64,000 bases of DNA from Takakia lepidozioides (Eukaryota; Plantae; Bryophyta): positions 5,332,001 through 5,396,000 of the forward strand of contig CM060733.1 in assembly GCA_030704615.1 (NCBI GenBank). The letters run 5' to 3'. The position numbers were made by a program, and so were the translations under genes. The notes beneath the pieces are model-generated. The model saw nothing but the letters and a program-made list of their open reading frames with translations, made no database searches and was not told the DNA's origin. This document shows, piece after piece, positions 19,301 through 64,000 of this stretch. Within the stretch, counting starts at the first letter, position 1. Each line of letters opens with the position of its first letter.

Positions 19301-19410
19301 AGGTCTCCGGTTCAAATTGAAAAAAAAATGATTAGATATGGCTTTGCTTCATATATTGATGCACTTGGACTTAGATGACAGTGTACACTTGGGCCAGGCT
19401 ACCCTAGTTT
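16340..19410. repeat. Complex higher-order tandem repeat: ~320-bp module A alternating with arrays of a shorter module B; probably TE-derived
   Basis: Module A (TTTTGTAGCGTTGAGATGTCCC...GGTACCGTTGGAAAGCCCTCGACGAGG...GGTTCAAATCTGGTCGTAGGCTC) at ~16345, 17150, 17645, 18265 and partly at ~18960. Module B (GATTGCACTTGGACTTAGATGACA.TGGACACTTGGGCCAACGGCACA...) lies between the A copies. Confidence 0.9.
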
Positions 19411-30700: not shown

Positions 30701-31290
30701 CCTTGGTGGAAGGACAACCAGCGTATGTGCTAAGCAGCAATCACCCAGAAACTACCTACATTGTTTACAACCCTGGATCGGATTGGGCTTCTTGCACTTG
30801 CCCATGGGCAATGAAAGGAAATTTGTGCAAACACCAAGTGAAAGTGCTGAAGTTGCTTCATCCCGACTTGCAGGATGGACTCATAGTGCGTGCATGTGGC
30901 ACGGTGCTCGGAACCATACATGGAGGATTGCATAATCTGATGTTGGATACAACGACTGTCGCGATAGACAGACCTGTGGAGGATTGTGACTTTGCACCCC
31001 TCGAGGAACCCGTCTACGTCCCACTGAGTATGGCCGAAGAATGGTCAGATATACTTCATATTGTGCGTGATGACAAGTACCTCGAGACACATGTGTTGTC
31101 ATGCCTTCGAATCTGTAGAGGGCAGCTTGTTGATATCCTGGCCAAAAGTGCTGCTGGGATGCTACATCCTCGTGCAGCAAAACCTTTCCGACCTGTTGAC
31201 GACAATAATAATTTGTCTCTGAAAAGGAAGAGGATTTTGTCGAAGCATGGAAAACCCGACCAGAGTCTTGCGGAGAATGCGCAATAGGGT
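27800..31290 (+). mobile_element. Decayed Mutator-like (MULE) DDE transposase with SWIM zinc finger, intron-containing
   Basis: IPWDRVVDFVHGEE, YQCCYGPDD, ESYKRRC..F, IGIQTEWQ...(D>N)ATFGTN, YTLMVFD...GIPVAYII, FIVDDA, CIWHVRKAW (CxxH), SWIM CTCPWAMKGNLCKH. Stops at ~28836 and ~30282 plus frameshifts. Confidence 0.88.
29390..30040. repeat. Palindromic minisatellite (GAGTCTGCTGGCAGACTC-type units) within a MULE intron
   Basis: Many GCAGACTCG / CGAGTC(T/C)GC units in both orientations between the donor at 29325 and the acceptor at ~30139. Confidence 0.85.
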
Positions 31291-31839
31291 GTATGCCCCA
31301 ACACCTGCAACGAAAATGTACTCTAGAATTGTTAAGATTTAAGACCGTTTGGCGGGACCCAAGTAGACAACATACTCACACAGCAAAACAATGTTACGCC
31401 ATCATATTCCATGCAGAGAAATAAAAGGTCCACAATCTGCTTGAGAGTGCATACATGTTTGCATCATTAACAGTCTGCAAGTGCATTCCATCAGAGCTCA
31501 AAGCGCCCCAACGTCCAGTTGCGGATGCCCACTCTTCGGCAAGACTTCCTACGTGGATCACAGGCAGGAGAGTCTGTTACAGACGGATCACAAGCACGAG
31601 AGTCTGTTGTAGATGAGGCTATGTTGTGGTTCTCGTATGTAATGGAGCGTGTTGTCTTTGACATTGTCTTGCACAAACCAGACATGTTCAGAGTATTGTG
31701 GTCTGGCTCGCCGCATCACGGCCGCAGTTCCGCGCTTGCCCACCTTGATTCCGCACTGCTGGACCGCCAAATTAAGGACATCGGACTCGTTGGAAATCTG
31801 CTGGAAGGTACTCGCGCGCTGCTCTATCTCATTCACTGC

Positions 31840-31850
31840 TCCCCCCCCCC

Positions 31851-31896
<46 letters not shown>
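31840..31896. repeat. Long poly-C tract
   Basis: About 56 C with one interruption. It produces spurious poly-Pro/poly-Gly ORFs. Confidence 0.95.
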
Positions 31897-31898
<2 letters not shown>

Positions 31899-32854
31899 CC
31901 AATCCTCCACCGCATTTGTTTATATCATTTTTTGTGTTCCATGCAGGGCGGATAGCGGGACCTGGAAATCGCATGTTGAGTGCTTTCGACTCCCTTGCCA
32001 GGGTTGCCAGAGAGGTTGTCCTGGCTGTGCAGGGTCATGAAAACCAGGGGACTGTCCGTAAGGCTGGCCAGGTCTGACAGGCTAGGGGGAGGTCTCAGGG
32101 GACTGCCGGGGATTTTCATCGGACTGGTATGCAGACTCAACAGACTAGTTTGAAGTCTCAGCAGACTGGTATGGAAATTGAGCAGACAAGACATGTCATG
32201 GAGCAGACTGCCTTGGGAAATCAGCAGACTACCGTGGAGTCTCGAGAGGCCTGTGACCAGGAGACTCGCAAACAGACTGAACAGAAGACTCAGGATGACA
32301 CTGAAAAGAACACTCCCATTGCGAAACAGCATTGCCAGAAGACCCAGAAGACCTCACATCAGACCTCAGTGGAGTCTGCTGAACAGTACCCTCCACAGAC
32401 TGTCCTCCACGACTTGCCCACAACATTTGTTACTGAGTCTGTTATAACGGGACAATGGCACATTCAACGGCCTGACCAACAGTGGATGTCTGAGCATTTG
32501 ACCCAATTGAAACGGACATCATCTGCCCAACCTAACTTCTTAATGGCTGCCAACCCTTTGTCAACGGTGCCAGAATCGACTTTCCCCCGCCGGATAAGTT
32601 CACCCACACACTTTGGCCCACACGATGTAACTATGCCCCGGAGACTATAGATGACTCCCACGCCCAACAGAGTATCCGCAAGACTGCCCAAGAGTCTGCT
32701 CCTGTGTTTGAAAATCCCTTGCACCAGACTCCGCATTACTCTGCCCAAGAGACTACACACATGTCTGCTCAGACGAGTTCACAAGACTCTGGTCAGCACA
32801 CAGCACAAGACTCCGCCGAGGTGACTACCCTGCTTAGAGAGTCTGTCCGGAAGA

Positions 32855-33095
32855 CTGCAGCAGACTCTGCCCACCCAACTGCACATGAGTCTGCCCAGGT
32901 GACTGCAGCAGCAGACCCTGCCCACCCGACTGCGCATGAGTCTGCCCAGGTGACTGCAGCAGCAGACCCGTCCCACCCGACTGCGCATGAGTCTGCCCAG
33001 GTGACTGCAGCAGCAGACCCGTCCCACCCGACTGCGCATGAGTCTACCCAGGAGACTACAAAAGCAGGCCCTGCCCACCGGACTGCGCATGAGTC
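32855..33095 (+). repeat. 48-bp tandem repeat (about 5 copies) reading as the 16-aa unit ADP(A/S)HPTAHESAQVTA
   Basis: GCAGCAGACCC..CCCACCCGACTGCGCATGAGTCTGCCCAGGTGACT repeated, in frame within ORF 32704-33159. Confidence 0.9.
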
Positions 33096-34029
33096 TGTCC
33101 GGTTGGCTTTTGTAGACACACCCCAACAGACTGTAGCAAACAATTCCCTGCAGAACTGAACAGATGACTGTACTTGATTTTTCCAAGGAGACTTCTTCAA
33201 AGTATGTCTAGCAGACTCCTATACAGCCCGCCCATAAGAGTTTCAATGAGGCGACAGTTGAGGACGTCCGCAAGCAGACTTTGCCTTCGCCGTCTCCGTC
33301 TGCTCCTACTCCTGCCAATGTTGGGTCAACAACAAAGACAGACAGTCTGCTCACACTGCCCGATTCTCGTGTTAGTTCAACGCATGTCATTCGTGAGGCT
33401 GCGAGGACTGGACCGGCAAGTGCCAACAAACCGACTGACACTCTTCTGCTGCGCAGCAGAGCTGCAATATTGCGGTAGTCTGGGCAAGTCGTCCCAGGCA
33501 TTGCGGTAGAGAGCGCCTCCGTCCGAGCAGAAAGAGGAAAAGCCCAAAAACGTCCGGTCGTTGAGGCGGTCAAGGAGACTAGAGAGGGTCATGTTCAAAA
33601 GAGACCAGCCAGGAAAGGCAAGTCAGATGTGTTTATGAACAAGGACCGCCGATTGTGTTTGGACATGGACAAGGAGGTGGCAGAGTTATTGGCGTCGAAG
33701 AAGTAAGTCATATGTGTCTGCTGCTTGGTCGTGTTCTTTTAAAGTTGCCTTTGCAGGTATGTATTTTCTGGCAGTCTATTGGCTTCTTGTCTGCAGTCTT
33801 GTAAGGTCTGTACTCGGTCTGCTGTGACTGTGACCCACAGTTGTGTTTGTCGACTTTGTCGATTGTCAGGTCTGTTGTTCGGTCCGCTGTGACAATGCGC
33901 TCCACTGTCCGAATGTCCAAATGTCCATTGTCCGATTGTCAGGTCTGTTGGTCGGTCTGCTAAGAGTCTTCCTTGACTTTGGTTTCTGGACTTTCTGGTA
34001 ATTCAGTTTCCCTTATCGGTCTGCTAAGA

Positions 34030-35176
34030 CTATGCAGCAGACTGATGTTTTTGGACATTGTGGAATGAGTGATGTCTTGGTGGGGTCTGACTGTATGTGC
34101 AGGATTGAAAGTCGTTTCCGGCGATTGATGTCCATACATGTAGCTGTTGGGAATAGGATGGTGTATTTTTTCGAAGGAGACTCGCGGTTCCAATGTGGCA
34201 TTGTGCCGGAAGACCTAAAAGCACTGAACGTGGTTGAGTCGGAGTGCTCGGAGAGACTTTTGGATGTCTGGTGTCGTTTTTTCGAGAACACCCTAGACTC
34301 AAGGACGTATGGCACTGTCGCTCTTTTGCCAACGTCGACGTGGTCTGTTTTCCAGACTTTCAACACAGCCCCACGCGAAACTTTGGTGGCAAACCTTGAT
34401 GGTGCCTTGACTCCTGCGCGACTTGGCAAAGACATTAAAGACTGCACTCATATATTGGTGCCGGTCTTGCAAGGATAAGACCCGACGGACTTGTTGCACA
34501 TTTTCCTGTCTGCTGAATGTTGGGTCTTCTGTGTGTGTTCGACCTCATGGTCTGTTCGACTGTCGTGTGAGTTGAACGTCATAGTCTGTTTGACTCCTGC
34601 ACTCTTGGACTGTTGGTCTGCTGGACTGCTAGTCCGTTGCATCTGTTGGAGTGTTGTGTGTGTTCGGCAGTTGGCCATTTGGACAGCCGAGTATGTTTGT
34701 CTGTTGGTCTGCAGAGTCTGTTGGGTTTGGGACTAATGAAATTGTGGGGCATGTTCATTTTTACATTGAAGGTGCCACAAGAGCGTCATTATCATCGACC
34801 TAAGGAAAGGCGCCTACACCCACTTGAACTCCTGGAGGGAAATGCATACTTACGTACAGCTCCTTGGTTGGATTTGGAAGGTGCATGCAGGGTGCTTTGG
34901 ATATGTTGTTGGGACTCCACAATGGGATGAAGTAATGGCATTTCAGTTCAACTCTCCCGAAGTGCCCCAACAACCTTTCGGGAGTGTGGGTTTTACGTGA
35001 TGTCTTTCATTGAAGGGTATTACGACTGGCTGAAAGGCGATAGGCAGAAAACCAAAGAGAGAGGACAAGCCTTCACACCAAGGTGGTTTAATTTCAGGTT
35101 TCCGTTACTGCAACGATTACAGTGTGTAAAGTATATTCGTCGTGGTTTGGACGATGCAGAAAAACTGCTCCCTTGA
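34030..35176 (+). pseudogene. Ulp1-like (C48) cysteine protease remnant associated with the MULE
   Basis: HILVPVLQ|CHKSVIIIDL...THLNS...EVPQQPFG(fs)CGFYVMSFIE gives the His, Asp(>Asn), Gln and Cys motifs in C48 order. Intron ~34473-34771. Confidence 0.7.
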
Positions 35177-35789
35177 GGAAATAAATATATACATTCAATG
35201 TTGTTTCAATTCACATTCTGAATGTATGTAATATTTTCTGAGATGAAGGCCTACATGCACTCATACTGTTCCTACCTATGCAAGTTCGTCAAAAGGCCGA
35301 ACAATACAGTCTAGTAGACAACCACCCCCACATCCTCACTTAGGCAGACTCCTTGGTTCTACTATTAACTGATGTTAGCAGCCTACAACAGTCTCCGTCT
35401 GTTTGACCAGTCTGTCGCGCAGTCTGCTGGCCGCTAAGCAGTCTGCCGGCTAGTTTATTGCATGATGAGAAGTCTGTCGTGCAGTGTGCTGGCCGCTCAT
35501 CAGTCTGCTCGGCAGAGTGTGTGGCACTTTGATGCATAGTTTATTTGTGTGCAGTTGGGCTCCGTGTCTGGGCGAGTGCGCTCCGTGGGAGCAGTCCGAT
35601 GGACAGTGCAGAAGACCACACAGTCACTCCATATTGTATGTCTGCTGGACCACCCAGTCTGTTAGCCAAAAACCATCAGCAGACTTGGCAGTGTTATTCG
35701 GTACTTGTGCAGTCTGCTTAGTAGTTTGTTTGGCCATTTCCGCGGGTCTGTTGAGCAGAATGCCCATTCTCAAATGATAACTGTGCCTT

Positions 35790-37985
35790 AGATTTTTCCG
35801 TTCTAAGACTTCTTTTGTGCCTCCAATTCACTTCTCCTTCTTCAAATTCAAGGGGGGACCGTTTGGCTCCTATGGAGCTGCCAGTAGGGTGGGCGGTCTT
35901 CGAACCACTGAATTCTTGACTCTGAAATCCGTCTGCAAAGAACCCTCCCCTCCCCCACGAGCTGTCAAATGTTGCAACGAGCTGGTTTCTCCTTATGTTA
36001 TTACACCTGGAAAGAGCTGCCACCAAAACATCCCATGCCTTGCGAGCCTCAGACAACATATCTGAGTGAACTAAGAACAAAAGTTTATGCAAACAGGGAA
36101 TTGAATTTTGGAAGAGGGTAGAGCATCTCATTTTCTAGATATGCCAGAGAGTGATGCCTCTAAGAGCAACCCAAACAGGGCAAGAGCAGAAGGATCTGCC
36201 ATCCTTGATATTGAGAAGAAGAGCAGAAATGGGGTATATGAGATCCCTGTCCCAAGAAGAATAAAGGGAGATAGCACGAGCCCAAATGGGCAGGACACTA
36301 GGCAATGTTCCAGATCCTCAGGGGCGTTTCTATTGCATGTGGCACATTTCAAAGGAGGGTCAGAGATGTAGTGTCCAACTGGAATTATACGATTGGCGAT
36401 TTTCCAAAGAAAGGCAGACACTTTGGAAGATCTCTGCTTTCTCCATATGTCTACCCATACCAGTTTCCATTGAATCGGTTGTCCGCCAAGGTGAGCCCAT
36501 TTGTTTGACCATTTCCTGTCAAAGGTTTGATTGGGCATCAGTAGAGAATATCCTATCTTAACCGTATAAGAGAAGAAGTGATCCTTGTTTTTGCTCATCC
36601 AATGCCACTCTCCTGGGTCAAATTGCAATTGACCGACAGGAGCCGATAGGAACCAAACGAAGAAGCCATTGTAAAGATGGAGCTCAAGCGGGGGGGGGGG
36701 GGGGGGGGATCAGCTTTACCCAAAATTGAGCAGAATACTCTAATGTCATAGCAGTCCGACCTGGCAGGAAGCTCGAAAGGCTGGGGATTAAGGAGAAGAC
36801 CATCACTTGCCACACTGAATCTTGTACCAAAAATGTGGTTAGGATCAATGGATGTGGTATATAGCGCAAATTTCTCCGAAGCCTGGGAGAATCCCAGCCA
36901 TCTAGGAACAGATCTCAAGTGTCGATTTGCCAACTGAGTCCAGATGGGGGGGAGGTCTTCCAAAATTGTGCCCCAACCAGAAGCCACTCTTCTTAGGGAG
37001 AACCCTGCTGCTGCTTCTTCCATGGAAATAGGCAAACCAGAATCTTGGTTCCAAAAATGCAGCATGTGCGACAAACCCGCTGCTTCCCAATGAGACCATC
37101 TTTCAGAACAGTACACCAAGGTCTCAGAGTCCCTGTTGAAGTTTCCGAAAAGAGGCTGTCTTATTACTTCACCATAGGAGGTGGGTTGCAGCTGATAGAA
37201 GGAGTCACAGAGCCTACACCAGGAAATCCATATCGATTGCCAAGCTTTGGATCCAACAGCAGGTCTGGCGTTCGTTTTTCCTCCTTGCACAGTCCATCTT
37301 AGGGATGGAGGGCAACACAGGCTTGTTTTAGGCACCGCTGCCATCAAATGGTTCCTCACCAATTTACTCCAGGGACTGGATAAGTTGGTGAAAACCCTCG
37401 GCACCCATTTAGCCAGCAATGTTGTTATCTGCGACTCTGGATCAAGCACTCCAAGACCACCATGTTTTATTCCCTGGCAGATCTGAGCCCAACTAACAAG
37501 TGCTCTTTTATTAGGTGCAGCATCCCTTGCACCCCAGATAAAATTCCGAGTCAGAGATTTTAGCTTCTTGATGAAGGATGCCCCCGGTGACCATACAGAG
37601 GAGGTGAACCAAGAGGAAGCCAGTAGTATTTGACTGGCCACCAAGGCTCTCCCAACCACCGTAAGGTGAAGTGAATTCCAGTATGCAAATCTTTTTTTCG
37701 GCTTAATTAGAACAGCTTCTACCCTGCTGTCATCTGAGATGTCAATCCCAATCTGATGTCCCAGAGATTCGTGGGTCTGGCCCTCAGCAAGCCACTTTAA
37801 CCCCAAGTCATCTCCCCATGGATCACAATGTTTCATAATGGCATTTGCTGGCAGCTGACTAAGAAGGCCGATAGATTTGCCCCAGTTTATCTTCAGGCCG
37901 GAAGCTTCACAAAAGCTATTAAGGGAGCTAAGAGTGGAGGAGACATTGGCAGAGGATCTATTATCTATGTACAAGGTAGTCTCGT
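35790..37985 (-). mobile_element. 5'-truncated L1-clade LINE (ORF2 from the end of RT through the zf-RVT region)
   Basis: TTLYI...FCEASGLKINWGKS, GRALVASQILLAS.W, RNFIWG, LVSWAQIC..IKHGGLGVLD, KVSAFLWK, CATC...EDLEHCLVSC. Frameshift near the poly-G at ~36690-36708. No poly-A tail seen. Confidence 0.9.
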
Positions 37986-40507
37986 ACATAGATAGTAGCG
38001 TCAGCATGTACAAGACTTTTGTGAGAGAGTGGGCTTCATTGAGCAGATAGTTGAGTCTCCCATGGATTTCATTGTAACGAGGGCAGGAAAAGAAGTGAAA
38101 AGAACATAGAAAGAGAGAATGAAGGTACTCTTTTTGGAAATTCTGCATTACGTGATTGGAAAGAACAGGAAGGCTCCATAACCTCAACTCAAGCGTCAAG
38201 GCTTTCCGTCGCAACTCACAACCTATATGGCAGGGCTTGCATGGATTACGTGCATTTGTTTTTTGCCAAAAAAGGGCCGTTGCCATGTTGTTACACCAAA
38301 AAAAAAAAAAAAAAAAAGAACGGAATACCCGCCCAACACTGGTTAGGTAGCCTAGGGACATAATGTATTGGATAAATGCATTTGCAGTAACCAGATTCTA
38401 TTCTTCAACTTCCATTCGAAACCATTGCTTGTAATGTGAGTGAAGAGTCTTTGAGTTATCCACAATAATAGTACATAAGTTAACTGGGGTGACAGGGCTT
38501 GAATTGCTGTGGACCTTTTAAGAAGAAATGATACATGATAGAAATGGATGCATGCCGATGGTCGAGGTGCATCCTCGGCTCATGAGATGGGGCCACAAGC
38601 GCCCCAAACGAGGAGGAGGGAGGCATTTTGTTTTTTTTGTTCATTTTAATATTTCTGGGGACAGAGGCCTGGAAACTTTATTATAATAATTATCTGAGGG
38701 TAAAAAATTAAAACCCTCATGTTCTTCAAACTGAAAATTTTAAGATTTACGCAGTGCGCGCACTTTATGAAAATGTATATAAAAGTCTTAAATATTGAAA
38801 AGCTACTTATTGAAAAACTTTACTGCTACCCTATGTTTCTGTCGAGTCTTTCCTTGAAAGGGTATGGTTGCAATTCATAGCGGGAAAGGAGTTCTTTAAT
38901 GAGGCCACGAAAGGAACGTTTTGATAAGATCGCGAGCTCATCTTTTGGGAGGTGACACTCCAGGACCATTACTCCTCATCTTCTTCTCTCTGCCACCACT
39001 GCCACATCGTACAGTACAGCAGTGAATAACTGCAGATGTACCCTCACAGTTTGCTATGATTATCGCTATCATAGGCGGGTACCTACTCCTGCTCTTCTTT
39101 GCCAAATCTTGTTGCGTGAAGCTTCCATTGGATCAATGATCTTCCTCCCAGGCAGATGTGTAGATGCCCTTGTGGGACCTCGTTGACCTTATACGGGCTG
39201 TACCGGGCGCCAACCCCTATAAAGGTTGACAGACTAAGGTACTCGAGTGGAATTCTCTGACACATGCTGGGCCACCACCACCCCCACCAAGGTCGCCGAG
39301 TGGGGTCCAGGCCAGGTGGCTTCTAGCATCCTAACATGGCAACAGTCAACTCGCTCGAGTTATGGAGGTTGGGACTTTGGTCATGAATTGGGTGGAGAGA
39401 CGACGAGAGTGGGTGTTAGGTGAATCGGTTGGCAGGTATATACCATATCTTTGGAGCTTTGACTTTAGGCCAGTTAATGCTACCGGTTCCCAGGCCACTA
39501 CCTGTACAGTACTGGGCCGAGCCTCTTTATGAAGTAAAATCCCTCGGGGAGGGGGACGGGCTTCCACATCTCTAGCAAAGAATTGGCAAAAACAAATTCT
39601 CTCAACAGACTGAAGGAGAGTAACTGAGTTATGGGGGAATTGCATAATTCCTTCCACTGGTTGGTTCCAGAAATGAGGATGGGAATGGTTCTCGGGTTTG
39701 TTCAATATCTACACCACCTAATAGGTATTGTCATAATGAAAATGTGCCTTCCAGTTCTTGTTCTCTCGACTCTCAAACAGAAATCGTGCTTTACATCATT
39801 GAATCTTATTCCAACTATTGGGAAGGTGGTGGCAAGAGAAGGCAGGAACACAGTGGCTCAAATACTCCTGTAGTTTTGAATGTCGGACCAACAAACTGAT
39901 GATGCCTCTGCATTCAGTCATGAGGAAGAAGTCTTACCTGTCTGCGATGGGAATTGAATAGACCTTGTCTGGATTCTGAGAGGAATCATATCTCACAATA
40001 CAAGGAAACTGGTTGATGGCCTTAAAATATTAAGGACAAATAGAACCAAATGGCCACTGCAAGCAAGGCGGTCAAGCACAAAGTGGTCAGTCATGGAGCT
40101 GCGAAGCCACTCAGCTTCTGGAGATTTTTGTCATCAAGTTCGACCTTGGTTCTTCCTTTCTACAATGTCCCAGCATATCACACTTGAGCCAAATAACTGT
40201 CAGGTGCTTTGCACCTCTGGTCAAATTTTGAAATGCCCTCTTCATGCGTGACAAGATCCTTTCACAATTTTTTGTGTCTACACATGTTTTTGTACCTGGC
40301 AACCCTCTAACAGACCATTCCGCACTGCGCAACCATCAATAAGGGCCTGGTGCATTTAGCCAAGGGAAAATTTCCATGCCTGACAATACTTACACCTACA
40401 CACCTACACCTTTGGAAACCTAACCTCATGGCTACCAGACCAAGCAACAGCAAAGCCAGCATTCATCAATTGCTTGTTGCTGCAGAGCTTGCATTGCTCA
40501 GTTTGCA

Positions 40508-50308: not shown

Positions 50309-50906
50309 GGGTAGCGCCCTGGGTGGAGGGCATTCCCAGATTTAAGGGCCTCATGCTGAGGGCAGTAGCCCCAGGGGAAGGCCCAGGGAATGCCCGACAC
50401 GAGGGGTGTCAAGTCATTTTACCACTAGTGTGAAACTAGCTAGGAAATAGCTAGCTTTTACATATTGACATTTGGGATTGGCCCAAGTGTCAACCCAGGG
50501 GTCAAGGCATATTCAGGCCCTGGAGTGGTTATCTTCACGGCAAGCGCGGGAGGCTCATCTTTCTCGAGTTGAGCCTCACCGCGCCTAGCTATGGCGTCGT
50601 AGTGTGGATTCCCCATGGCGTGGGGTGCACTTGGCTTGACTTGTATTTGAGTGATGAGGTTATATATGCATGAATTTATGCTTCAGATTTGTGTGCTCGT
50701 GCTTGTATTCTTCTTCGTTGTGTGGACTAGTGACTGCCATAGTGGGCAGCATAGTGGCAGCCTAGTGACTGACTAGTTGTAGCCTAGTGGTTGGACTAGT
50801 GGTGAACTAGTGATATACTAGTGTGTGGCATGCACATGTGTTGTGTGGTTTTGGACAGCGATGTAGTTGTGTAGCGATATGTATGCGCACGACAGGGGCG
50901 TTACCC
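50309..50906. mobile_element. Small fold-back MITE (~110 bp when empty) interrupted by a solo LTR
   Basis: TA|GGGTAGCGCCC...GGGCATTCCC // GGGAATGCCC...GGGCGTTACCC|TA nested inverted repeats. Confidence 0.7.
50407..50894 (+). mobile_element. Solo LTR related to the DNMT-carrying gypsy family
   Basis: TGTCAAG...GCACGACA flanked by GGGG on both sides. Colinear with the reverse complement of 56169-56602 (e.g. CTCATCT.TCTCGAGTTGAGCCT; TTTGGACAGCGATGTAGTTGTGTAGCGATA.GTATGCGCACGACA). Confidence 0.85.
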
Positions 50907-52649
50907 TACGTAAAGAAATGCCAAAAAAATTTAAAAGAAAATCTAATGACAGATGCATACTGCATTTCGGAATGCACTCGATGGAGCTGATAGGGTGCAT
51001 TCCGTCGGGTGGAATGCACCTTGATGAATTCTGCTTTTTAACGGTACGATAAATACAAACAAAAGTTTTTGGCAATGCTTTGCGGTGTCATTACATCCTG
51101 AATGGATATTGCCAGGTTCGAGTTGTTTTGTAGCACTTGTGTTTTCATGAGAAGCGGTTCAGCCTAGAGTGCAGGGATCCGTGCATGAGCCTATCCAAAG
51201 TGGATAGAGTGCAAAGGCGAACAGGTTGCAGGTTTGCAATGGATAGAGAGGCGGGTAGCCTATGTTGAAGAGCGGCGTTGCATAGCTCAACGCTATGGCA
51301 ACCAAGTTTGGGCTTCTAGTGTGAAGCGGGGGAGATGTTGGTCTCGAGTGGGTGAACTGGTGGTCGTCTTCTTCAGCTGCAGGCCAAGTTAAGGAGCTGC
51401 AGCAATGTGGAGCTGCGAGGGTGTTAGATGTAAGTCACAGTTATCGGGAGCTCCAACTTCAAGCTCATAAGGAGGTATGAGTGAAGAGAGATGGCTGATT
51501 TCTCTTGTATGCAAGCCAATGCATTTGTGGCTATGTTGAGTTGGGGGTTTCAATCTGAAACTCCAGCGGTATGAGGGCTCTTGCCATGGCAAGAGCGGGG
51601 CTGGAACAGGAGCTAAGAGGTGCGGCAAGGCCATGAAATATGCACCTAGGGTTTCAGAGCTTGGAAGAAAAGTTCTTGCACCACAAGAGGAGTGTCTTGT
51701 GGCTGGAAATGTAAGCCTTAGGGTTTCAGGAGCTTGGCAAGGGCTGTGGAGTGCTTAGTCTTGTCTTAGAGAGCATCAAGGAGCCAAGGAGCCAAGATAG
51801 GGGCTGATATCTCTTGTGTGAAGAGGTTGCATGTATGGAGCATGTATTTAGCTCATTGAAGCTTCCATCTTCAAGCTTGGAGGGCAAGCAAGGAAGAGGG
51901 AAGGGCTGACTTCCCTTATGTGAGGGCAATGCATGTGTGGAGCATGCTATCAGCCTGGTGAAGGCTTGCACTTTCAGGTGTGGGAGTGCAAGAAAGGAAG
52001 GAAGGGGCTGGTTTCCCTATAGGGCATGTGGAGCATGCTTTCAGCCTGCTGAAGCTTGTATTTTCAGGTTTGTGGGTGCAAGAAATGAAGCAAAGGAGCT
52101 GATTCTCTTATGGTGAGAGTGGGGCATGTGTGGAGCATGCCTTCAGCCCATTGAGGCTCTTGTTTTCAAGCTTTAGAGAGCTAGAACGACGGAAGGTCTA
52201 GGGCTGGTTTCCACTTGGAGTGAAAGAAAAGACTTGTAGGGCCTATGTGAGTTGGGGTTTCAACTTCAAGCTTGAAGGGAGCGCAACTCTTGAAGCAGCA
52301 GGTGTAGGGGGCTGGAATAGGCTCTAAGACAGATGCTATGGCCAAGGAGAGTGCTTGAATGAGTGCTCACAAGGGCTAGGAACCAGCAGGGCTTGGTTGT
52401 TTGCCATTGAGTTTAGTGGCGTGTTTGGGGAGGCTAAGTGAGAAAGAAGGCTTGGTTTGTGGCAATCACCTCATGGCTTAGGGCTACTATGGTGGTGTGT
52501 GGGAGCCGAAAGAGCAAGAATACCTTGCTGATTTCCTCACAGCCGCCATAGCTCGGTGGAAAGAAGCCTAGAGTCCAAGAGACACAAACCCTAGCTTGGC
52601 GTGGCTAAACCCCTTGGAGAAATGACTAAACTGCCAGAGCGGCCATGGA

Positions 52650-54080
52650 TGGGGCTGTGACGGGCCGTCCCTGTGGCCTTGGGGGCTGTGAGGGGCTGTG
52701 AGGGGCTGTGCCGGGCTGCGCCGGTGGCCTTCGGGGCTGTGAGGGCCTGTGAGGGCCTGTGCCGGTGGCCTTCAGGGCTGTGACGGGCTGTGAGGGCCTG
52801 TGACGGGCTGCGCCAGGGGCCTTGGGGGCTGTGATGGGCTGTGAGGGGCTGTGCCAGTGGCCTTTTGGGGCTGTGATGGGCTGTGAGGGGCTGTCATGGG
52901 CTGCGCCCCTGGCCTTTGGGGCTGTGACGGGCTGTGAGAGGCTGTGACAGGCTGTGCCCGTGGCCTTTGGGGCTGTGATGGGTTGTGAGGGGCTGTGACA
53001 GGCCGTGCCTGAGGCCTTTGGGGTTGTGACGGGCTGTGACGGGCTGTGACGGGCCGTGCCTGAGGCCTTTGGGGCTGTGACGGGCTGTCAGGGGCTGTGT
53101 CAGGCCGTGCCTGAGGCCTTTGGGGCTGTGAGGGGCTATGACAGGCTGTGGCGGGCTGTGATAGGCTGTGCCCAGTGGCCTGTGGGGATGTGACGGGTTG
53201 TGAGGGGCTTGACAGGCTGTGCCCCGTGGCCTGTGGGGCTGTGACGGGCTATAAGGGGCTGTGACAGGTTGTACCCTGTGGCCTGTGGGGCTGTGACGGG
53301 CTACAAGGGGCTGTGACAGGCTGTGGCCTGTGGCCTGTGGGGCTGTGACGGGCTGTGCCTAGTGGCCTGTGGGGCTGTGACGGGCTGTGCAGGGCTGTGA
53401 CGGGCTATAAGGGGCTGTGACAGGTTGTACCCTGTGGCCTGTGGGGCTGTGACGGGCTACAAGGGGCTGTGACAGGCTGTGGCCTGTGGCCTGTGGGGCT
53501 GTGACGGGCTGTGCCTAGTGGCCTGTGGGGCTGTGACGGGCTGTGCAGGGCTGTGATAGGTTGTGGCGAGCTGTGACAGGCTGTGGCTGTGACAGGCTTG
53601 TGGGGCTGTGATAGGCTGTGGCCAGGTGTGACAGGCTGTGATGGGCTGTGGCGGGCTGTGACAGGCTGTGCCCTGTGGCCTGTGGGGCTGTGACGGGCTG
53701 TGAGGGGCTTGACAGGCTGTGCCCAGTGGCCTGTGGGGCTGTGACGGGCTGTGAGGGGCTTGACAGGTTGTGCCCTGTGGCCTGTGGGGCTGTGACGGGA
53801 TGTGACAGGCTGTGGCGAGCTGTGATGGGTGGCGAGCTGTGACAGGCTGTGCCTGTGGCCTGTGGGGCTGTGACGGGCTGTGACAGGCTGTGCCTAGTGG
53901 CCTGTGGGGCTGTGACGGGCTGTGAGGGGCTGTGACAGGATGTGCCCTGTGGCCTGTGGGGCTGTGACGGGCTGTGAGGGGCTGTGGCCTTTGGGGCTGT
54001 GACCCCTGTGACCTGTGTCGGGCTGTGACAGGCTGTGCCCTATGGCCTATGGGGCTGTGAGGTGCTGTGGTGGCCCGTGT
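52650..54080. repeat. G-rich minisatellite: GGGCTGTGAC-type decamers in ~40-50-bp higher-order units
   Basis: Directly visible, e.g. GGGGCTGTGACGGGCTGTGAGGGGCTGTGACAGGCTGTGCCCTGTGGCCTGT. Confidence 0.95.
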
Positions 54081-54899: not shown

Positions 54900-56168
54900 C
54901 TGATTCGGATTGTGAATCAGGAGGACTCATACAGGCGGTGCAAGTTGTTTCCTTGCCATTGTTGTGGGACACAATGGAGAGATGTATGGAGCTACCAAGG
55001 GGCCACGAAGGTACTCTGGGGCGGTGGGCACCATCGAGTTGGATGATTTTATCCAAGAGTTTGATAGTTGGTGTGATTTGCAGCAAATGCGCAATCCACA
55101 ACTATTTACGCCTTTCATGGCATGGAAGGGGCTGTTTCAGCACCTTGAGGGGCCGCCTATGGATGATTACCATGAGTTCAGGCGGGGGCATGAGGTTGAG
55201 ATCGAGGAGTGGAGGATGTACTGGTCACCCGACTATGTCTCCATCACTAGGGCAGTGGCTACCCCTTTCGCTGCACCCGCAGCTTCAGCAAGTAGCAGAG
55301 GGACTAGTGGGACTGGTGGTACAGTAGCTACGACGTCCACCCAAGCCACTACCGCACCAGCACACTAGTACCCGTGCCTGCTTCAACCCTGTTGTGGAGT
55401 TCTTCGAAGAGTTGAGAGGGAACTACCAAGGGTGAGGACAGAGAAGTTGCGGAGCTTGCAAGAGTTCCAACGGAAGCCGACCGAGAGCTTGAGGGAGGCT
55501 TTCACTCGCATGAGGCGCTTGATAAATGTAACCCAAGGGGTTACGGAAGCTCAGGCGGTCCAATTCTGGTATGGGATATTGGACAATGAGCTGAGGAGAA
55601 GGGTGCGGGATGCAACTCTCCTACAAGCGGCCCAACCCACCTTAGCAAATGTGTTTTTGCTGGCAGAGCGGATAGAGCTCAACATGGAGGAACAAGTGGT
55701 CATGGTGGGATTTGCTAAGGAGACACCACGGGGTAGTGGTGCTCCTAGCCAACCACTACCTCAATGTGCTCAAGGCAAGAAGGGGGCTCAGGTGAAGCTC
55801 AGGGAAGGGCAGAGAGGACCTCATATGCAGGGGTATCTCCCTTCATTTGCTGGCCAACAACGGGCGGATGTGGTGTGCTGGACATGTGGAGGACCCCATG
55901 TCAAGAAGGATTTCCCAGAGGGAGGCAAAGGGCCGGCACATGCACAGCCTGCACAGTTGCAGTGTGGGCATTGTGGCAAGTACGGGCATGGAGAGGCCCA
56001 GTGTTATGGTTTGCATCCTGAGTTGCGCCCAGGCCAGTTCCAAGGGAACAATGGTGGCCGAGGGCAAGGTGTAGTAGCCCAGAGAGGATGAGGTGGTCAG
56101 CCACGAGGTGCAGGCCAAGGGCAAGCTCAACATGGCCAAGGACGCGGAGGTCAGGGTGTTGACCAAGG
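54900..56168 (+). mobile_element. Ty3/gypsy gag of a sister element, cut at 56168 by insertion of the minus-strand element
   Basis: GTIELDDFIQEFDSWCD...HLEGPPMDDY, FQRKPTESLREAFTRMRRL, zinc knuckles CWTCGGPH...(C>F) and CGHCGKYGHGEAQC. Colinear with the minus-strand gag up to GTTGACCAAGG. Confidence 0.9.
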
Positions 56169-56694
56169 TGTCGTGCGCATACGTATCGCTACACAACTAC
56201 ATCGCTGTCCAAACCACACCACACATATATGCACAATAAAGCAGTCTGCCACAAAGCTAAAGGACACATACTCTCAACACAAGAAATATGAAATCCATCG
56301 CTATCACTCTTTAAAATAGAAGTCGAGCCAGGGGCACCCCAAGCTATATGGGGACTCCACCCCACAACAACCTACACTCTTATCATAGGCACATTCAGAT
56401 CTAAACGCATGAAGGAGCTCGGTCGCGCAGGCTCAACTCGAGAGAGATGAGCTGCGCGACTGCCGCTCTCGTGAAGATAAGACGGTTCAGGTGTCAAACT
56501 AAACTTGACACCTGATTTAACACTTGACCTAAATCCAAGTGTTAAATATAAATAACTAGCTTTATTCTAGTTGTTTTCACACTATGCTTATTTAACTTGA
56601 CAGCTGTCATGCGCATACGTATCGCTACACAACTACATCGCTGTCCAAACCACACCACACCACACATATATGCACAATAAAGTAGTCTGCCACA
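56169..56694 (-). repeat. 3' LTR region: 90-bp LTR-end copy (56694-56605) + GC + 434-bp LTR (56602-56169)
   Basis: 56605-56694 and 56169-56253 are near-identical direct repeats. 56602-56169 matches the solo LTR at 50407-50894. Confidence 0.85.
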
Positions 56695-56954
56695 ATCGCC
56701 CCCCTAGCTGGTGGATAGGTCCCTCTACCTCCAGATAGCTACAAGATATAATAGCCACAGCCGTACTAAGTCCTCTATCACTGTCCCTATTGTACTCAAA
56801 CTCTATAGACCAAGAGGCCAGGTACAAGAGTAGCCCCATCGTTAGTCGCCGTCTTGCAATCTGTGAACTTGAGCCAGGATCTCGTGTGTTCAAGGTCTCC
56901 TAGTAGCTTGGCATTGCATTTCTTGTTAGCCTTCCATGGTTGTATCCACTCCCA

Positions 56955-58240
56955 CTATCCAATGCAATGTGGACATAACCAATCCCCATCCGGAACCATC
57001 TCAAGAGGTGGAGTCAAGCATCCCATATGCCAACCTCTAGAGCATCGATCACACACCAGCATGGTGGCTGCCCCTCTAGCAGACCCACACAATATGCACC
57101 TCAAACCTGCAGATACGACTGCCAAGTTTGGGTCTATCCTGCCATCGACGTTCGGAAGGTGACATGGCGCACAATTACGCACATGGTCCTTCCAAGTTAT
57201 GCCATCCCGACCCTCCAAGACCAAGACGCCTGAGGGCAAGACCTCTCGAACCCTCAAAATAACACGTCCTGCAGTCACATCCAAGGTCGTAGGAGCAGTC
57301 TGCTGCAGATAGACGTAGTCACTAGGGTTGAATCTCCGAACCCCAGGACGATAGCCCCCACCACGTATGGTAGCATACCTCAACGTCACGGTGTTGTGCA
57401 ATGGCAAGGTTCTCAAAGCCATTGGCATGACTTTCTTGAACAACTCTGCACGTTGCTCACATGCACGTGCCCACACATCCGGATCGTCAAGGTTAAGAAC
57501 TGTAGCAGCTTCTCTGTGAATGGATGTAGGCAAATCCGGCTCTCGGCCAAAGAGAAGAAAGTATGGTGAGAAGAAGGCAAGTGATGCTTGCTTGCTGAAC
57601 CTGTAGCCCATGGCTAACCAGGGTAACTGAAGGTCTCAATCTCCTAGGTGTCCCTTCTGCAAGCCATACTTGCGTAAACCCCTCTTTACTGTCTGAACAA
57701 CTCTCTCTGCCAAGCCATCGGCCTCAGGATGATCCCGAGAAATGGTGCGGTGGTCTATCAAGGCCTTGTCACACAAAGCCTGAAACTCCCCCAAGAACTC
57801 TCTCCCTTGGTCCGTGAGTACCTCAGCTGGAGCACCACCGAATCGGCGAAGTACACAATCCAAGAATGCATACGCAGCTCCCTCACTAGCCTTATCAGGC
57901 AATGGAACCAATTCAATCCACTTGGAGAAGTGCTCCACCATCACCAACACGTACTTGTTGTGGCGCAATGAGTGGCAACGGCCCTGCGAAGTCAAGACTC
58001 CACCTGTAGCCCAATCCCATGATCGGAAGAGGGTGCAATTGTGGAGTAGGGGCGTTGAATGAAGCACACACCCTATCACACACCATGCACCTAGCCACAA
58101 ATTGTTGCACCTCTGTGTGCATACCACGCCACCAATACTGCCCCTGCAGTAGACTATGAGTGCGTCGCACCCCAAAATGCCCCAACTCCTCATGGGCATG
58201 CCGCACTAACCGTGCCCGCTATGTTGGGTGAGGCACAATC
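56955..58240 (-). CDS. Integrase (HHCC + DDE core) with C-terminal PHD finger; frameshifted
   Basis: HEELGH..CMVC, WSLDFAGP, VLTDQGREF, GLAERVVQTVK, FSPYFLLFGR. PHD CILC...CDRC..GWHMGC...WLCPHC at ~57098-56964. Confidence 0.93.
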
Positions 58241-58589
58241 CTCACTCGACATCCTCCCACACTCGGAGCAGGTGTGTCCCCTCCCACTTGAACCTCTTGG
58301 CTCGTTGTAGGATCCGATCCCTCTCCTTGGCAGTCACAGTGGCTGCAGTGTCTCCAGTGCGGAGGTAGTCCAACACAACTGAATCCTCATGTATATCTTT
58401 GGCGCCACCTTGCTCATTGCTGGCCTCAGGGTCCTCAGACACTTGATCTACAGTCATCCCTGTTGCAGGTCCAACCTGGCCTTCCGCGCCAGATACACAG
58501 AAATGCAGATGCATGCCATCCGGGCACCATTCCTCGTCCGTCTCACCATGCCACCGAGCTCCAGTGTCATCCTGCTGGCTCGTGCATGG

Positions 58590-59960
58590 ATTGCGACTCA
58601 ACCCATCTGCATTGCGATTGACCAAACCTGGTCGATGCACCACCTGAAAGTCATACTCTTGAAGGATTGATGCCCACCGTGCAAGCTTCCCCGTAAGCTT
58701 GTCTGACTCCATCAACCACTTGAGTGGTTTTGGTGATCCGTGACAAGGGTGAAGAGATTGCCATATAGATAGCACCTGAAGTGTGCCACGGCCCACACTG
58801 CAGCTAAGCATTCTCCCTCATATGAGCTATACTTAGACTCTGCAGCATTGTTCGAGCGGCTAGCATAAGCCACTACGAACTCTCTTCCCTCATCATCCAC
58901 CTGTGTGAGCACCGCTCCAAGCCCCAGCATGCTCCAATCTGTATGCAGCTGAAAAGGACGCCCCCTGATAGGTCGTCTCAAGATGGGCGCCGAGGTCAAC
59001 CTCGCCTTGAGCTCTTGAAAAGCTTGTTCTTGCTCATCTTCCCACTGCCACTCCTGGTCCACCTTGGTCAGCTTGGTTAGAGCCTTTGCAATGGCACTAA
59101 ATCCCTTAACAAACCGTCTATAATAGTTTGCTAACCCCATGAAAGCTCGAACTCGGCTCACATCCGTGGGGCGTGGAACCTGTGCAATGGACTCTACCTT
59201 AGTCTGCTGTACCCCCAATCCTCCAGGATATATCATGTGACCCAGATACTCAATCTGGTTGTGGAAAAACTTGCACTTTCCCGGATGTAACTTCAATCCG
59301 TGCGTCCTCAAGCGCTCAAATACCCCCTGAAGGTGTCTCTCATGCTCCTCCACCGTAGCACTAAAGATGATGATGTCATCTATGTAGCACCGAGCAAACT
59401 CCACCCCTGCTAGAATCCTGTCCATGACTCTTTGAAACTCAGCAGGAGCGTTTTTAAGCCCAAATGGTAAGAACCGCCACTGGTATAGGCAATCCTTCCC
59501 GTGCTCATTGATCCCCCAGAATGCCGTCTTTTGCTTATCCGCCTCCTTGATCGGCAACTGGTGATATCCGGATCGTAAATCCAACGTGCTAAAGACCTTG
59601 GAATGCCCAATGGCATCAAAGATCTCCTCTGGTGTCGGCATGGCATACCTATCGGACTTGGTCTGACGATTTACAGGCCGGTAATCACCGCACATACGTC
59701 TCTCCGTCCAATTGCCATAGACATCCTTCTTGGCTGGCATCACTGTGGCTGAAGCATACTCTCCACCAGAGAGCTCCACCAAACCTGCCTCCCAAAGATC
59801 TTGAGTTCTCATCTGAATCAAGACCTCTCCATGTCACTGTATCTATAGGGTCTCCGAAAGATTGGCGTGTCAGTGGCCAACTCAATGCGATCTCTTGACC
59901 CTTCAGTGCTCCCAAGTCCTTCAAACTGAAGGCAAAGCAATTCCTGTAAGCCCTCAGGAA
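58590..59960 (-). CDS. Reverse transcriptase and RNase H
   Basis: RMCGDYRPVN, FSTLDLRSGYHQ, LPFGLKNAPAEFQ, YIDD, YLGH, FMGLANYYRRF, LHTDWS, YEGECLA, TDH. Confidence 0.97.
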
Positions 59961-60379
59961 CCGCCGTATACGTCGTCTCTCTCTCCTCCGGTGACAATGG
60001 GTCCAATGTCAGGCTCCCAATTGTCCTCCGTAACTGCAACCTTAAGTCCAGTGGGCTTAGAGGTAGAGGACGCGTCCCGTGGTTGCTATGCTGCAACCTC
60101 TTGAGCAGTACTCCCTTCCTGCTCAGTCAATGACAAGGCCTCATCCTGCCCCATCATCTCATCATTGAGAACCTCCTCAACCCGAGAAGAATCCCCAACC
60201 TCATCCATCACAGCTGCCTTGGCTGCCAACTCCCTCTGAACCTCGAGCACCTCCCACGTGTGCCATGGATGTCTACACCCCGTGGTCCTCACCGGCTCGC
60301 CCCCACTCGCTGCCTGTACCGTCTCGGTAGGCAGAGAGACCGTCAAGGGAAGTGCACTCCGCACTCTACGTTGCTCAGC

Positions 60380-61325
60380 CATAGCCAAGCTGATAATCCA
60401 GGTCAAGCAATTGAGATCCATTGCTTGCCCCAACACCTGACGACGTGATGCCTCAGAAAGAGAAGGCACCGCCGTGGTCCCAGTGGAAAACCCCATAGCC
60501 CGCTCTCGCTCGTCGGCATTAGGCTCCACTAACTGTTGCAACTGAGCATCCCACAGGAGGCCAGGTCCACCATCCCGAAAAGCATGGGATCCTGGGAAGC
60601 TGAGCAGTGTAGGTAATGCTGCTCGTGGTTGACCCACCCTGTTGACCACTGCCAAAGGCGAACGGTCATCGTGTCTCACACGTTGAGACTGCCTCCCTGT
60701 GTCAAAATGCATCCACGTGAGGTGTGCTGGCCGCTGCACCCCATCAAATGCACGCTTGAGCAGTGCGGGTGGCATCAAGTTAGTCCACCATAGCCGTGGA
60801 CGATGAGCCCGTGATCCCACTGCAGCTGCATCCAGCACACTGCTGACCCAAGCCACGACCGGACTTGATGCACACTGGCCATCACCCTGGCCCGAGAATC
60901 GCCCATCAGTGGCACATTCTCCAAGATGTATGCTGGAGATACAGCTTGATGAAGCTGCAAGTGGCGCAAAATCCGCACCATCCCAAAACAGACCCGTCCT
61001 CGAGTCTCGCAATCCATTGCCATGCCCGGCTGATGAATGCCCTTGGCAGGGCCAACCTGCCACTACCAGATCAATGGAGCCAACCTGCTCCAAATCCTGC
61101 CCCCAGCAAGAAATGTCTGCTGGCAAGGCTTGTTGGTATCCACGAACTGCAGACACTGGCAACAAGCAGGGTACTGCTGTACCAACTGAGCAACATGGCG
61201 CAGTGAGACGCGTCGTGCAGTCTCATCCTCTCCACATACAGGTAACGCCTTACCGCACACCTGCCTGTAGCACAGCAGCCAATCCGGTGCTGATCCCGCC
61301 AAACAAGTCCAGAAGGCAAATGCCT
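60380..61325 (-). CDS. C5 DNA cytosine methyltransferase domain, DNMT3-like, embedded in pol; split by frameshifts
   Basis: Motif I LDLFGGISTG, II YLYVE, III ADI, IV DLVVAGWPCQGHS, V DSRTGLF, VI YILENV, VIII AHRPRLWWTNL, IX ERERAMGF, X RRQVLGQAM, in canonical order across ORFs 61250-61609, 61071-61319, 61063-61425, 60086-61165 and 60775-61023. Confidence 0.92.
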
Positions 61326-61769
61326 TCATCCGGATACTGCCACACAATAGGTGTGGTATCCAATGGTGACAACTGAGGTGGTCCTGGTGCAATACCCGCA
61401 CTCTCCTCCTCTCCTGACGGTACAAAAGCCTCTACCCAGGCTTGTTGCACCCGTCGATCAGCAACCTGCTGCAAATCCTTGCTCGTACCCCACAATGGAG
61501 TGTGAGCAACCATGGCAGGCAACTCCGCCATACCATGCATGTCATCCTGCTCTGCTGGAGGTGGCACATCCTCTGCATGGCATTGCCTTCCAGCAACTCT
61601 CCAGGCCAACTAACTGCAGCTGTAAAGGCGGCTAGTGTTGGCATCTTGCCCCGTTGGGCAGCCGCAATACCCCCAATGAATGTCACAGGGAGCTGTGCAC
61701 GACGACCATCCCCTGACTGCCATCCAGGCCTGTAGGATGCTGACTCCTCCCAAAGTCCAGGGTGAAGCC

Positions 61770-62040
61770 CATGGGTATAACACTGCCCCACCAACGAGGA
61801 CATCGTAAGAGACCGCGTCTGTCACAATGGCCTTGGCTCGCATTACTGAGCCATCGATAGGATGATCCGGCTGTAGTCTAATGGCCAACTGATGAGTGTC
61901 ATGCCCGAGCCTGCTCTGATCCTCCCAGAGATGTCTGTATCTGGAAAAGACAAGGCTCCATATCCGCCTCCATGAGGCCCAAACCTGCAATAGCAGCTCT
62001 GCCCAACATCAGTGGCTAAGCTCCCAAGTCCAACAAGACC
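61770..62040 (-). pseudogene. Retroviral-type aspartic protease, inactivated
   Basis: VLLDLGA*PLMLG at 62039-62000 (expected DSGAQ) and C-terminal YDVLVGG motif. Confidence 0.8.
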
Positions 62041-62539
62041 TCGCAGTGGCCGGTACTTCTTGCCTGCCGGTCCACTCAAAGAGAAAATGCCATCCTGGTT
62101 GTCTAACAAGACAACTCCAGGTGTCACCATGGCGCGCTCAAAGGCTGGCCTAGCTGGCAGCTCCGTCAACCTGGCAGCTGCAGCTTGCCATGGCGCAGCC
62201 GTGGCAGTCTTGACCCTCAAATCCGAGGATCCCTCTGCCACTACACCTCCACTAACTCCGCAGAAGATGAAGTGACCTCCCCACTCTCACAGAGTGTTGC
62301 TGCTAGTCTGAACACTGCAGCTGGTCTTACCCCCGGCGTCGCAATCATGGTTGCCGAGAACAGTGGGGCTTGACACACAGAGGTGGCTGCCCCCAACAAC
62401 ACACCGGCTGCACTAGCCTTGGCAGCAGGTGTCAGTGCTGCACGTGTAGCTCTCCCCAATGGCATAGTAACCTCCGCCTCGGTAACAGTCGGGCGAGAAC
62501 TAGGTGCCATGGATGGCGTCGACACTGTCTCCGCCAAGT

Positions 62540-64000
62540 GAATGACTGAGGAAGCCTCGCCTGACGGCTTGCCTCCCCACGTTGTGGATCCAACTCCACC
62601 TCTGCACCTCGTGGCTCAGGAACTCGTGCTGCTCCTCGAGTCACGGCTGCAGCAGACTCCACCTGCTCTAGTGGTAGTGCTGCTCCGCACATGAATCCCA
62701 TGCCTCCCATATCTCCTCCCTCAGGAGCAGGAGGTGGACCATCCCGCCTGGGAGCCGGTACCGCCTGAGCTGTAGCCATGGCAGCGAGCCTCTGCTCTAG
62801 CTGCTGAAGCCGGTTGGCCATGCCTTGGTCAACACCCTGACCTCCGCGTCCTTGGCCATGTTCTTGCCACCTCGTGCCCGACCACCTCGTCCTCTCTGGG
62901 CTGGTCCACCTCGCCCCGGCCACCATTGTTCCCTTGGAACTGGCCTGGGCGCAACTCAGGATGCAAGTCATAACACTGGGCATCTCCATGCCCATACTTG
63001 CCACAATGCCCACACTGCAACTGTGCAGGCTGTGCTTGTGCCGGCCTTTTGCCACTCTCTGGGCAATCTCTCTTGACATGGGGTCCTCCACATGTCCAAC
63101 ATATCACCCCTGGTTGCTGTTGGCCTGCAAAAGATGCCACGGGCCTCTGCACCTGAGGTCCCCTGTAAGCTCCATGGAACTTGGGTTGGGAAACCTTGCC
63201 CCCCTGACCACGCTGTTGGGCAGTCCCTTGTGCCTGTGGGCTGGCAGCTGCGCCTCGTGCAGGCATGTCCTTGCCAAATCCAATGGTAACAACTCGCTCC
63301 TCCACCATGTTGAGCTCAATCCGCTCAGCCAGCAGAAACACATCTGCTAATGTGGGTTGGGCTGCTTGTAACAGGGTTGCATCCCGCACCCTTCTCCTGA
63401 GCTCCTTGTCCAAATTCCATACCAAACTGGATTGCCTGAGCTTCAGTAACCCCTTGGGTCACACTTATCAAGCGCCTCATACGAGTGTACGCCTCTCGCA
63501 GGCTCTCACTGGGTTTGCGCTGGAAGTCTTGCAAACTTCGCAGCTTCTCTGTCCGTACACCTTGGTAGTTCCTCCGCAACTCCTGGAAGAACTCCACCAC
63601 CGGGTTGAATCTAGGCACATGTGTTGTAGTCGTGGCAGGAGGAGTAGTAGCACCTTTTGAACTGGTACCACCTGCAGAAGTACCGGCACTACTTGTTCCA
63701 CTACTAGTGCTGGCAGTGGGAGATATTGGTACTGATGCAGCTACTGGTCGCGTCGTGCCTCGAGTAATGGAGACGTAGTCAGGTGACCAATACATCCTCC
63801 ACTCCTCAATCTCTGCTTCATGTCCTCGCCTGAACTCGTGGTAATCGTCCATAGGCGGGCCTTCCAAATGCTGGAACAGTCCCTTCCACGCCATGAATGG
63901 GTGAATAGCTGTGGATTGCGCATCTGCTGCAAATCACACCAGCTGTCGAACTCCTGGATAAAGTCATCCAACTCGATTGTGCCCACAGCTCCAGAGTACC
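62540..64000 (-). CDS. Gag with two zinc knuckles; frameshifted, N-terminus outside the window
   Basis: GTIELDDFIQEFDSWCD, FQRKPSESLREAYTRMRRL, CWTCGGPHVKRDC, CGHCGKYGHGDAQC. Confidence 0.92.

Follow-up and report, generated by a model that had tools for sequence, protein, structure and literature searches.

A DNMT3-like methyltransferase domain ahead of a conserved in-frame stop codon in a Ty3/Gypsy retrotransposon family of bryophytes

Transposon-borne cytosine methyltransferases have been described in dinoflagellates and in one charophyte alga, without a known role (PMC5890265). The charophyte element, KnitGypsy-Dnmt3 of Klebsormidium nitens, contains the Gypsy domain set and a non-permuted, intronless Dnmt3-like domain in the RT/RNase H open reading frame, is under purifying selection, and is bounded by DIRS-like repeats in the arrangement A...B-A-B (PMC5890265). 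Its methyltransferase showed no activity in yeast, a result that the authors called inconclusive. The dinoflagellate element SymbioDIRS-Dnmt3 combines a DNMT3-type domain with split repeats, and its enzyme methylates CG de novo in yeast (PMC5890265).

The window, i.e., the whole stretch of 64,000 nucleotides analyzed here, contains an element of this kind (Table 1). It is classified as Ty3/Gypsy because of the domain order RT-RH-IN, and the complete order, Gag-PR-RT-RH-IN with a DDE integrase, is that of Ty3/Gypsy elements. The match of the window gag to Retrotrans_gag was weak and below the cut-off, and ORF2 ends at 56955. The methyltransferase domain (DNMT) lies between the protease and the reverse transcriptase, on the same strand as both, as the preliminary description of this DNA had stated; the charophyte element, which it mentioned, is the closest precedent and has the same Gypsy domain set, selection regime and repeat layout, with an algal host as opposed to the land plant here. 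SymbioDIRS-Dnmt3 belongs to the DIRS class, whereas the bryophyte element encodes a DDE integrase and is flanked by 4-bp target duplications.

Table 1. Features of the retrotransposon in the window (coordinates are positions of the window)
Feature	Coordinates	Strand	Remarks
Ty3/Gypsy-type retrotransposon with split direct repeats	56169..64000	-	5' end outside the window
gag, two zinc knuckles	62540..63998	-	frameshift-broken in the window copy; tblastn with Marchantia P0003; knuckles seen in relatives
Aspartic protease remnant	61720..62042	-	broken in the window copy; relatives read LLDSGA
DNMT3-like C5 cytosine methyltransferase domain	60395..61321	-	motifs I-X linear; five frameshifts in the window copy
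ORF1 C-terminal tail, poorly conserved	60089..60394	-	102 residues, ends E-V-A-A, then stop
In-frame stop and context TAG-CAA-CCA, candidate readthrough site	60080..60088	-	matches UAG-CAR-YYA
Candidate extended stem-loop downstream of the stop, weak	59970..60075	-	predicted
Reverse transcriptase	59219..59773	-	PF00078, E 4.9e-33
RNase H	58724..59047	-	PF17919, E 7.2e-34
Integrase, H2C2 finger and core	57726..58218	-	PF17921, PF00665
C-terminal PHD finger	56964..57098	-	PF00628, E 6.6e-11
Polypurine tract directly before repeat B1	56696..56705	-	also in Sphagnum-like copies
Repeat B1	56605..56695	-	ends ...GACA
Repeat A2	56255..56602	-	begins TGTC; equals the repeat of the element 5' end in full-length relatives
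Repeat B2, right element end (...CA)	56169..56254	-	90% identical to B1

Over the DNMT and RT-RH regions, the window copy has nine frameshifts and no stop codons. Among the Sphagnum-like loci, 9 of 11 have 0-2 frameshifts and 2-11 stops, and the remaining two carry insertions. Several breaks of the window copy differ in other copies captured in the contigs of run X1. Given frameshifts without stops, and other copies that differ at the breaks, assembly indels are a likely cause of the frameshifts, or else the breaks are specific to this copy.

The preliminary description referred to an LTR retrotransposon; the Ty3/Gypsy domain set agrees with this label, but the element ends do not. A canonical LTR pair flanking the body is absent from the three full-length loci, which instead start with repeat A on the 5' side and finish with B-A-B on the 3' side. 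The polypurine tract precedes B1, and B1 and A2 are joined through CA-nn-TG. Of this layout, the window includes the 3' B-A-B only, since the left end of the element lies outside. The three full-length loci have TG...CA ends, except for one left end that reads TA, and all three are flanked by 4-bp target duplications, two exact and one with a mismatch; no tRNA genes were found in these loci. Troyka elements were considered and rejected, since they have CG...CG ends and a 3-bp duplication and are reported from animals only (PMC12440569), as opposed to the TG...CA ends and 4-bp duplications here. Entries of REXdb required a pair of 5' and 3' LTRs, and the split repeats may explain why plant catalogues built on LTR pairs would overlook the family.

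Five loci (L010, L016, L020, L027, and L039) have only one B repeat at their end, the product that recombination of B1 with B2 should leave, and a joint matching this form is present in one contig of run X2. A lone A-B unit related to the 3' repeats is located on the plus strand at 50407-50894 and is possibly the split-repeat counterpart of a solo LTR. The gag of a second family copy, ~77% identical and in the opposite orientation, occupies 54916-56168 (plus strand); it breaks off precisely where the first element has its right end, i.e., the insertion is nested.

The claim that the methyltransferase motifs are linear, with the catalytic PC, ENV and RxR in place, was borne out by three-frame reading and by an alignment, with frameshifts allowed, to the intact locus L009, a natural relative; in this alignment, 211 of 313 residues are identical from 61321 to about 60395. 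The window domain retains intact motifs I (DLFGG), IV (GWPCQG), VI (ENV), VIII (AHRPR), IX (ERERAMGF) and X (GQAMD) in non-permuted order. Its five net frameshifts are all deletions, there are no stops, and the alignment to L009 reveals an additional compensating pair of frameshifts near 60710. The largest DNMT open reading frame of the window matches PF00145 (E 3.7e-7). When the L009 domain was searched against solved structures, the top match was DNMT3A (2.9e-11), and a profile built from 40 relatives ranked DNMT3A (1e-23) above DRM (3e-12), M.HhaI (3e-8) and DNMT2 (4e-5), a ranking of DNMT3A/B over DRM, DNMT2 and bacterial enzymes that applies to solved structures. The predicted model of the L009 domain (pLDDT 95.8) has a TM score of 0.74 to DNMT3A. 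The catalytic Cys and Glu are invariant in the 40 relatives, and both motif VIII RxR arginines are found in at least 90% of them. Thus, by sequence and by predicted fold, the domain is of the DNMT3 type, as initially proposed, and is distinct from the permuted DRM; its activity as a C5 methyltransferase is predicted. The host DNMT3 proteins of non-flowering plants (PpDNMT3a/b) likewise have a non-permuted DNMT3-type catalytic domain, but they end in a DUF3444 (PMC6453930), whereas the element domain resides in a retrotransposon frame and DUF3444 was not found on the ORF1 proteins P0349 and P0355, for which PF00145 is the sole domain listed.

A further claim, that protease, DNMT and RT form one uninterrupted polyprotein, was not supported. 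In the window, the DNMT frame ends at a TAG codon (60088-60086), and the RT N-terminus resumes in the same frame after this stop, so that the DNMT closes ORF1 (Gag-PR-DNMT). We compared the junctions of 47 loci and the window (48 sequences), with a readable RT start in 31. An in-frame stop is present in all 31 readable junctions (TAG in 19, TAA in 12), 17 codons upstream of the RT start, or 23 in the window. This is the point of departure from KnitGypsy-Dnmt3, since here the DNMT would share a product with RT/RNase H only via readthrough. The stop is followed by CAA-CY in 31 of 31 junctions (25 distinct, from three lineages), a context seen at just 27 of the 8426 remaining stop triplets, and the site forms an island of identity among the three lineages between divergent flanks. 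It should be noted that the independent cases are few, namely, the three lineages and one case read back from two Marchantia proteins, which would give TAG-CNA-CNA when both copies are combined. Intact ORF1 proteins from Marchantia, a Calypogeia cluster and further contigs consist of Gag-PR-DNMT and end 77-163 residues past motif X, and in L009 the same frame continues from Gag through integrase with two interruptions, this stop and one other. Among the X1 differences listed (40 of 313), none falls on 60086-60088, which is a weak test. The interchange of TAG and TAA was considered as evidence of a functional stop and rejected: the G-to-A change was found at another nearby TAG in 8 of 21 cases, compared with the 12 of 31 TAA codons at the junction, and because the nearby TAG changes equally often, TAA at the junction is not evidence for a kept stop.

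In-frame stops between gag and pol are known in Gypsy elements (bioRxiv 10.1101/2022.12.06.519325; PMC3441728). In the fission-yeast elements Tj1, Tosmo and Tcry1, a conserved in-frame stop determines how much structural protein is made relative to the enzymes, as it would here; there, it is a TGA between Gag and protease (bioRxiv 10.1101/2022.12.06.519325), in contrast to the TAG that follows Gag-PR-DNMT in a CAR-YY context in the bryophyte element. In tobamo-, beny-, and pomoviruses, type I readthrough is signalled by UAG-CAR-YYA (PMC3542737). The complete CARYYA match is found in 4 of the 31 junctions (the window, L009, L013, and L014), whereas the 27 Sphagnum-like junctions match at five of the six bases and have C or T at the sixth; readthrough in this family is a prediction from sequence. 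The stem-loop predicted downstream of the stop is weak, with z between -0.9 and -2.4 in 7 sequences and, as regards covariation, two-sided changes in 3 of 21 pairs, and the Q-P encoded after the stop could reflect a constraint on the protein instead of an RNA signal. On this evidence, readthrough of the stop would probably yield the RT-RNaseH-integrase-PHD product.

The same product could arise by splicing, with the TAG serving as a 3' acceptor or with a short intron spanning the stop, or by downstream reinitiation. The TAG conforms to YAG, the sequence immediately before it is rich in T in the Sphagnum-like copies (0.30-0.38), and all 27 of their junctions have an ATG three codons past the stop; on the other hand, such T-richness is absent from the window and L009 (0.15 and 0.23), as is the ATG. 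Annotated gene models P0004, P0006, P0010 and P0020 bridge DNMT and RT over the stop, but at differing places, and a crude scan identified no strong-context GT donor common to four aligned copies. Splicing between protease and RT reportedly occurs in Ogre. Conversely, the conservation reaches 3' of the stop as CAA-C, and we consider both routes unlikely. Either way, production of the DNMT would remain wholly or largely coupled to that of Gag.

Under the readthrough reading, the methyltransferase would be produced at the level of Gag, because the DNMT closes the Gag-PR-DNMT frame and the domains from RT onward follow by likely readthrough. Gag-PR-DNMT would be produced in bulk and assemble into particles; the protease would cut it, and the released DNMT would be packaged at a Gag-like abundance. 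The minor readthrough product would supply RT and the PHD-bearing integrase, and the DNMT, if active, would methylate the new double-stranded cDNA of the element. We assign this explanation as a whole, i.e., a built-in DNMT that closes the Gag-PR frame, a leaky stop, Gag-like packaging and methylation of the element's own cDNA, a rough probability of 0.55; for the cDNA as the target, taken separately, the chances appear about even. The observed/expected CpG ratio is 0.51-0.55 in the element and 0.43-0.51 elsewhere in the window; CpG is thus no lower in the element than around it, and its composition bears no mark of self-methylation. In L009, which is nearly open, this ratio is 0.26, compared to 0.48-0.58 in four other loci.

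A DNMT present in Gag-like excess might instead act mainly on host chromatin or on the insertion site, together with the PHD-bearing integrase, and not on the particle cDNA. High expression would fit action in trans, a PHD finger terminates ORF2, a green-algal clade has the domain between RNase H and integrase, and plant DNMT3b performs de novo methylation of CG and CHH (PMC6453930). We nevertheless regard this target as quite improbable, given that the ORF1 proteins, with PF00145 alone, have no chromatin-reading domain or DUF3444 on the DNMT and that fusion to Gag would favor packaging. Still less probable is a role apart from DNA, such as RNA methylation or nucleic-acid binding in the particle. 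The enzyme of the algal element did not act on yeast DNA, and RNA methylation has been raised by de Mendoza for LINE-borne DNMTs (PMC5890265), but the nearest structures are those of DNMT3A/B with DNA, DNMT2 scores far lower (4e-5), and the catalytic residues are invariant.

The DNMT is an integral part of a high-copy Ty3/Gypsy element whose family is common to peat mosses and liverworts. Annotated relatives with 60-77% identity come from Calypogeia fissa, Marchantia polymorpha and Sphagnum fallax, and further relatives from M. paleacea, Riccia and S. troendelagicum; vascular plants are not named among the matches listed. The order protease-DNMT-RT is present in 21 of 47 metagenome loci, several of these 21 being duplicates, and no locus has another order, the rest being truncated. 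Single Gag-PR-DNMT reading frames are found in P0003, P0349 and P0355. In run X1, from the organism of the window itself, 76,957 contigs map on the element, and the depth over the DNMT resembles that over RT/IN. That the DNMT belongs to the element, as the preliminary description maintained, is thus supported by the same position across loci and genomes and by the even depth; a one-off insertion or an assembly artifact of the window copy, which the many frameshifts of this copy might suggest, is practically negligible given these observations and the absence of an inverted repeat of at least 40 nt around the DNMT.

Between lineages, the dN/dS ratio is 0.06-0.16 for the DNMT and 0.05-0.12 for the RT; these ratios are rough, because dS is near saturation and only well-aligned columns were used. 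Identity between the window and L009 DNMT by codon position, unfiltered, is 0.70/0.80/0.45. Within the Sphagnum-like family, the DNMT ratio is 0.49-1.11, owing to decay after insertion. These sequence comparisons indicate that, between lineages, the DNMT is not neutral and is under purifying selection. RT and DNMT tree distances correlate with a Spearman coefficient of 0.62 (42 rows), which is not proof of co-evolution because kin share both. A scan of viral contigs gave no match. One protein with a 53% identical DNMT (P0373) is labelled as originating from a bacterial MAG; its contig is 2.4 kb long and is probably plant or algal DNA in a bacterial bin.

In a midpoint-rooted FastTree phylogeny of the DNMT (103 rows, with one spliced Marchantia model mislabelled), elements with the PR-DNMT-RT order form a clade (support 0.994) to which both Closterium and the bryophyte group (0.993) belong. 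Elements with the order RT-RH-DNMT-IN-PHD (P0057, P0080, P0065 and about 50 others, the named members being Scenedesmus) are placed apart from it in a group of their own; the RT tree separates the two architectures less cleanly. The literature searches, which were directed at other questions, brought up no account of DNMT-bearing Gypsy elements in chlorophytes. The uninterrupted PR-DNMT-RT-RH-IN proteins P0473, P0187 and P0194 branch outside the group whose proteins end with the DNMT part (0.849), and this position suggests that the stop was acquired later, the junction DNA coming from the bryophyte group alone. A broader history can be proposed tentatively. An old group of split-repeat Gypsy elements, spread across the green lineage, would have carried an active DNMT3. 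In its bryophyte branch, the DNMT would have been transferred across a leaky stop of the tobamovirus type, leaving the scarce Pol product for the Gag product, so that particles are loaded with the enzyme and the cDNA is pre-methylated; in land-plant genomes rich in the family, de novo methylation would then come in part from an enzyme that a transposon encodes. This scenario as a whole is possible but less than even in its chances.

Elements of this kind are already known from algae; the land-plant family and the stop junction are new as far as the literature was searched. No description of either was found, and neither appears in the available portions of PMC12344493, PMC6317226, PMC11982613, PMC6673714, PMC9940879, PMC5009743 and bioRxiv 363937; one may exist in subscription journals, in Repbase or among the supplementary figures of PMC5890265. 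The family is present in Marchantia, a genetic model in which methylation mutants exist, and this makes it testable whether, and why, a retrotransposon methylates its own cDNA, and the stop after the DNMT offers a concrete prediction of stoichiometry. In addition, bryophyte annotations overcount methyltransferase genes because of the DNMT copies that come from the element.

Outside the element, the window contains a host gene for plastid ribosomal protein L10 (9737-10938, minus strand), with exon identity of 87% to Sphagnum, 82% to Selaginella and true mosses, and 75% to ferns; in the RPL10 tree, it is weakly placed near Sphagnum (SH-aLRT 87), which would point to a moss of an early-branching lineage as the likely host. 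An HIPL1-like host gene was recognized by eye at 21393-24659 (minus strand). Inspection by eye of the 27500-37000 region also indicated SWIM-finger/MULE-type transposase-like reading frames (28278-31284), a Ulp1-like piece (34002-34475) and, at 35700-38400, LINE-like pieces. A complex repeat array with units of ~500-800 bp extends over 16300-19400, and a GC-rich satellite with a strong strand skew, whose 10-bp subunits are organized into higher-order repeats of 41-52 bp, is located at 52600-54080.
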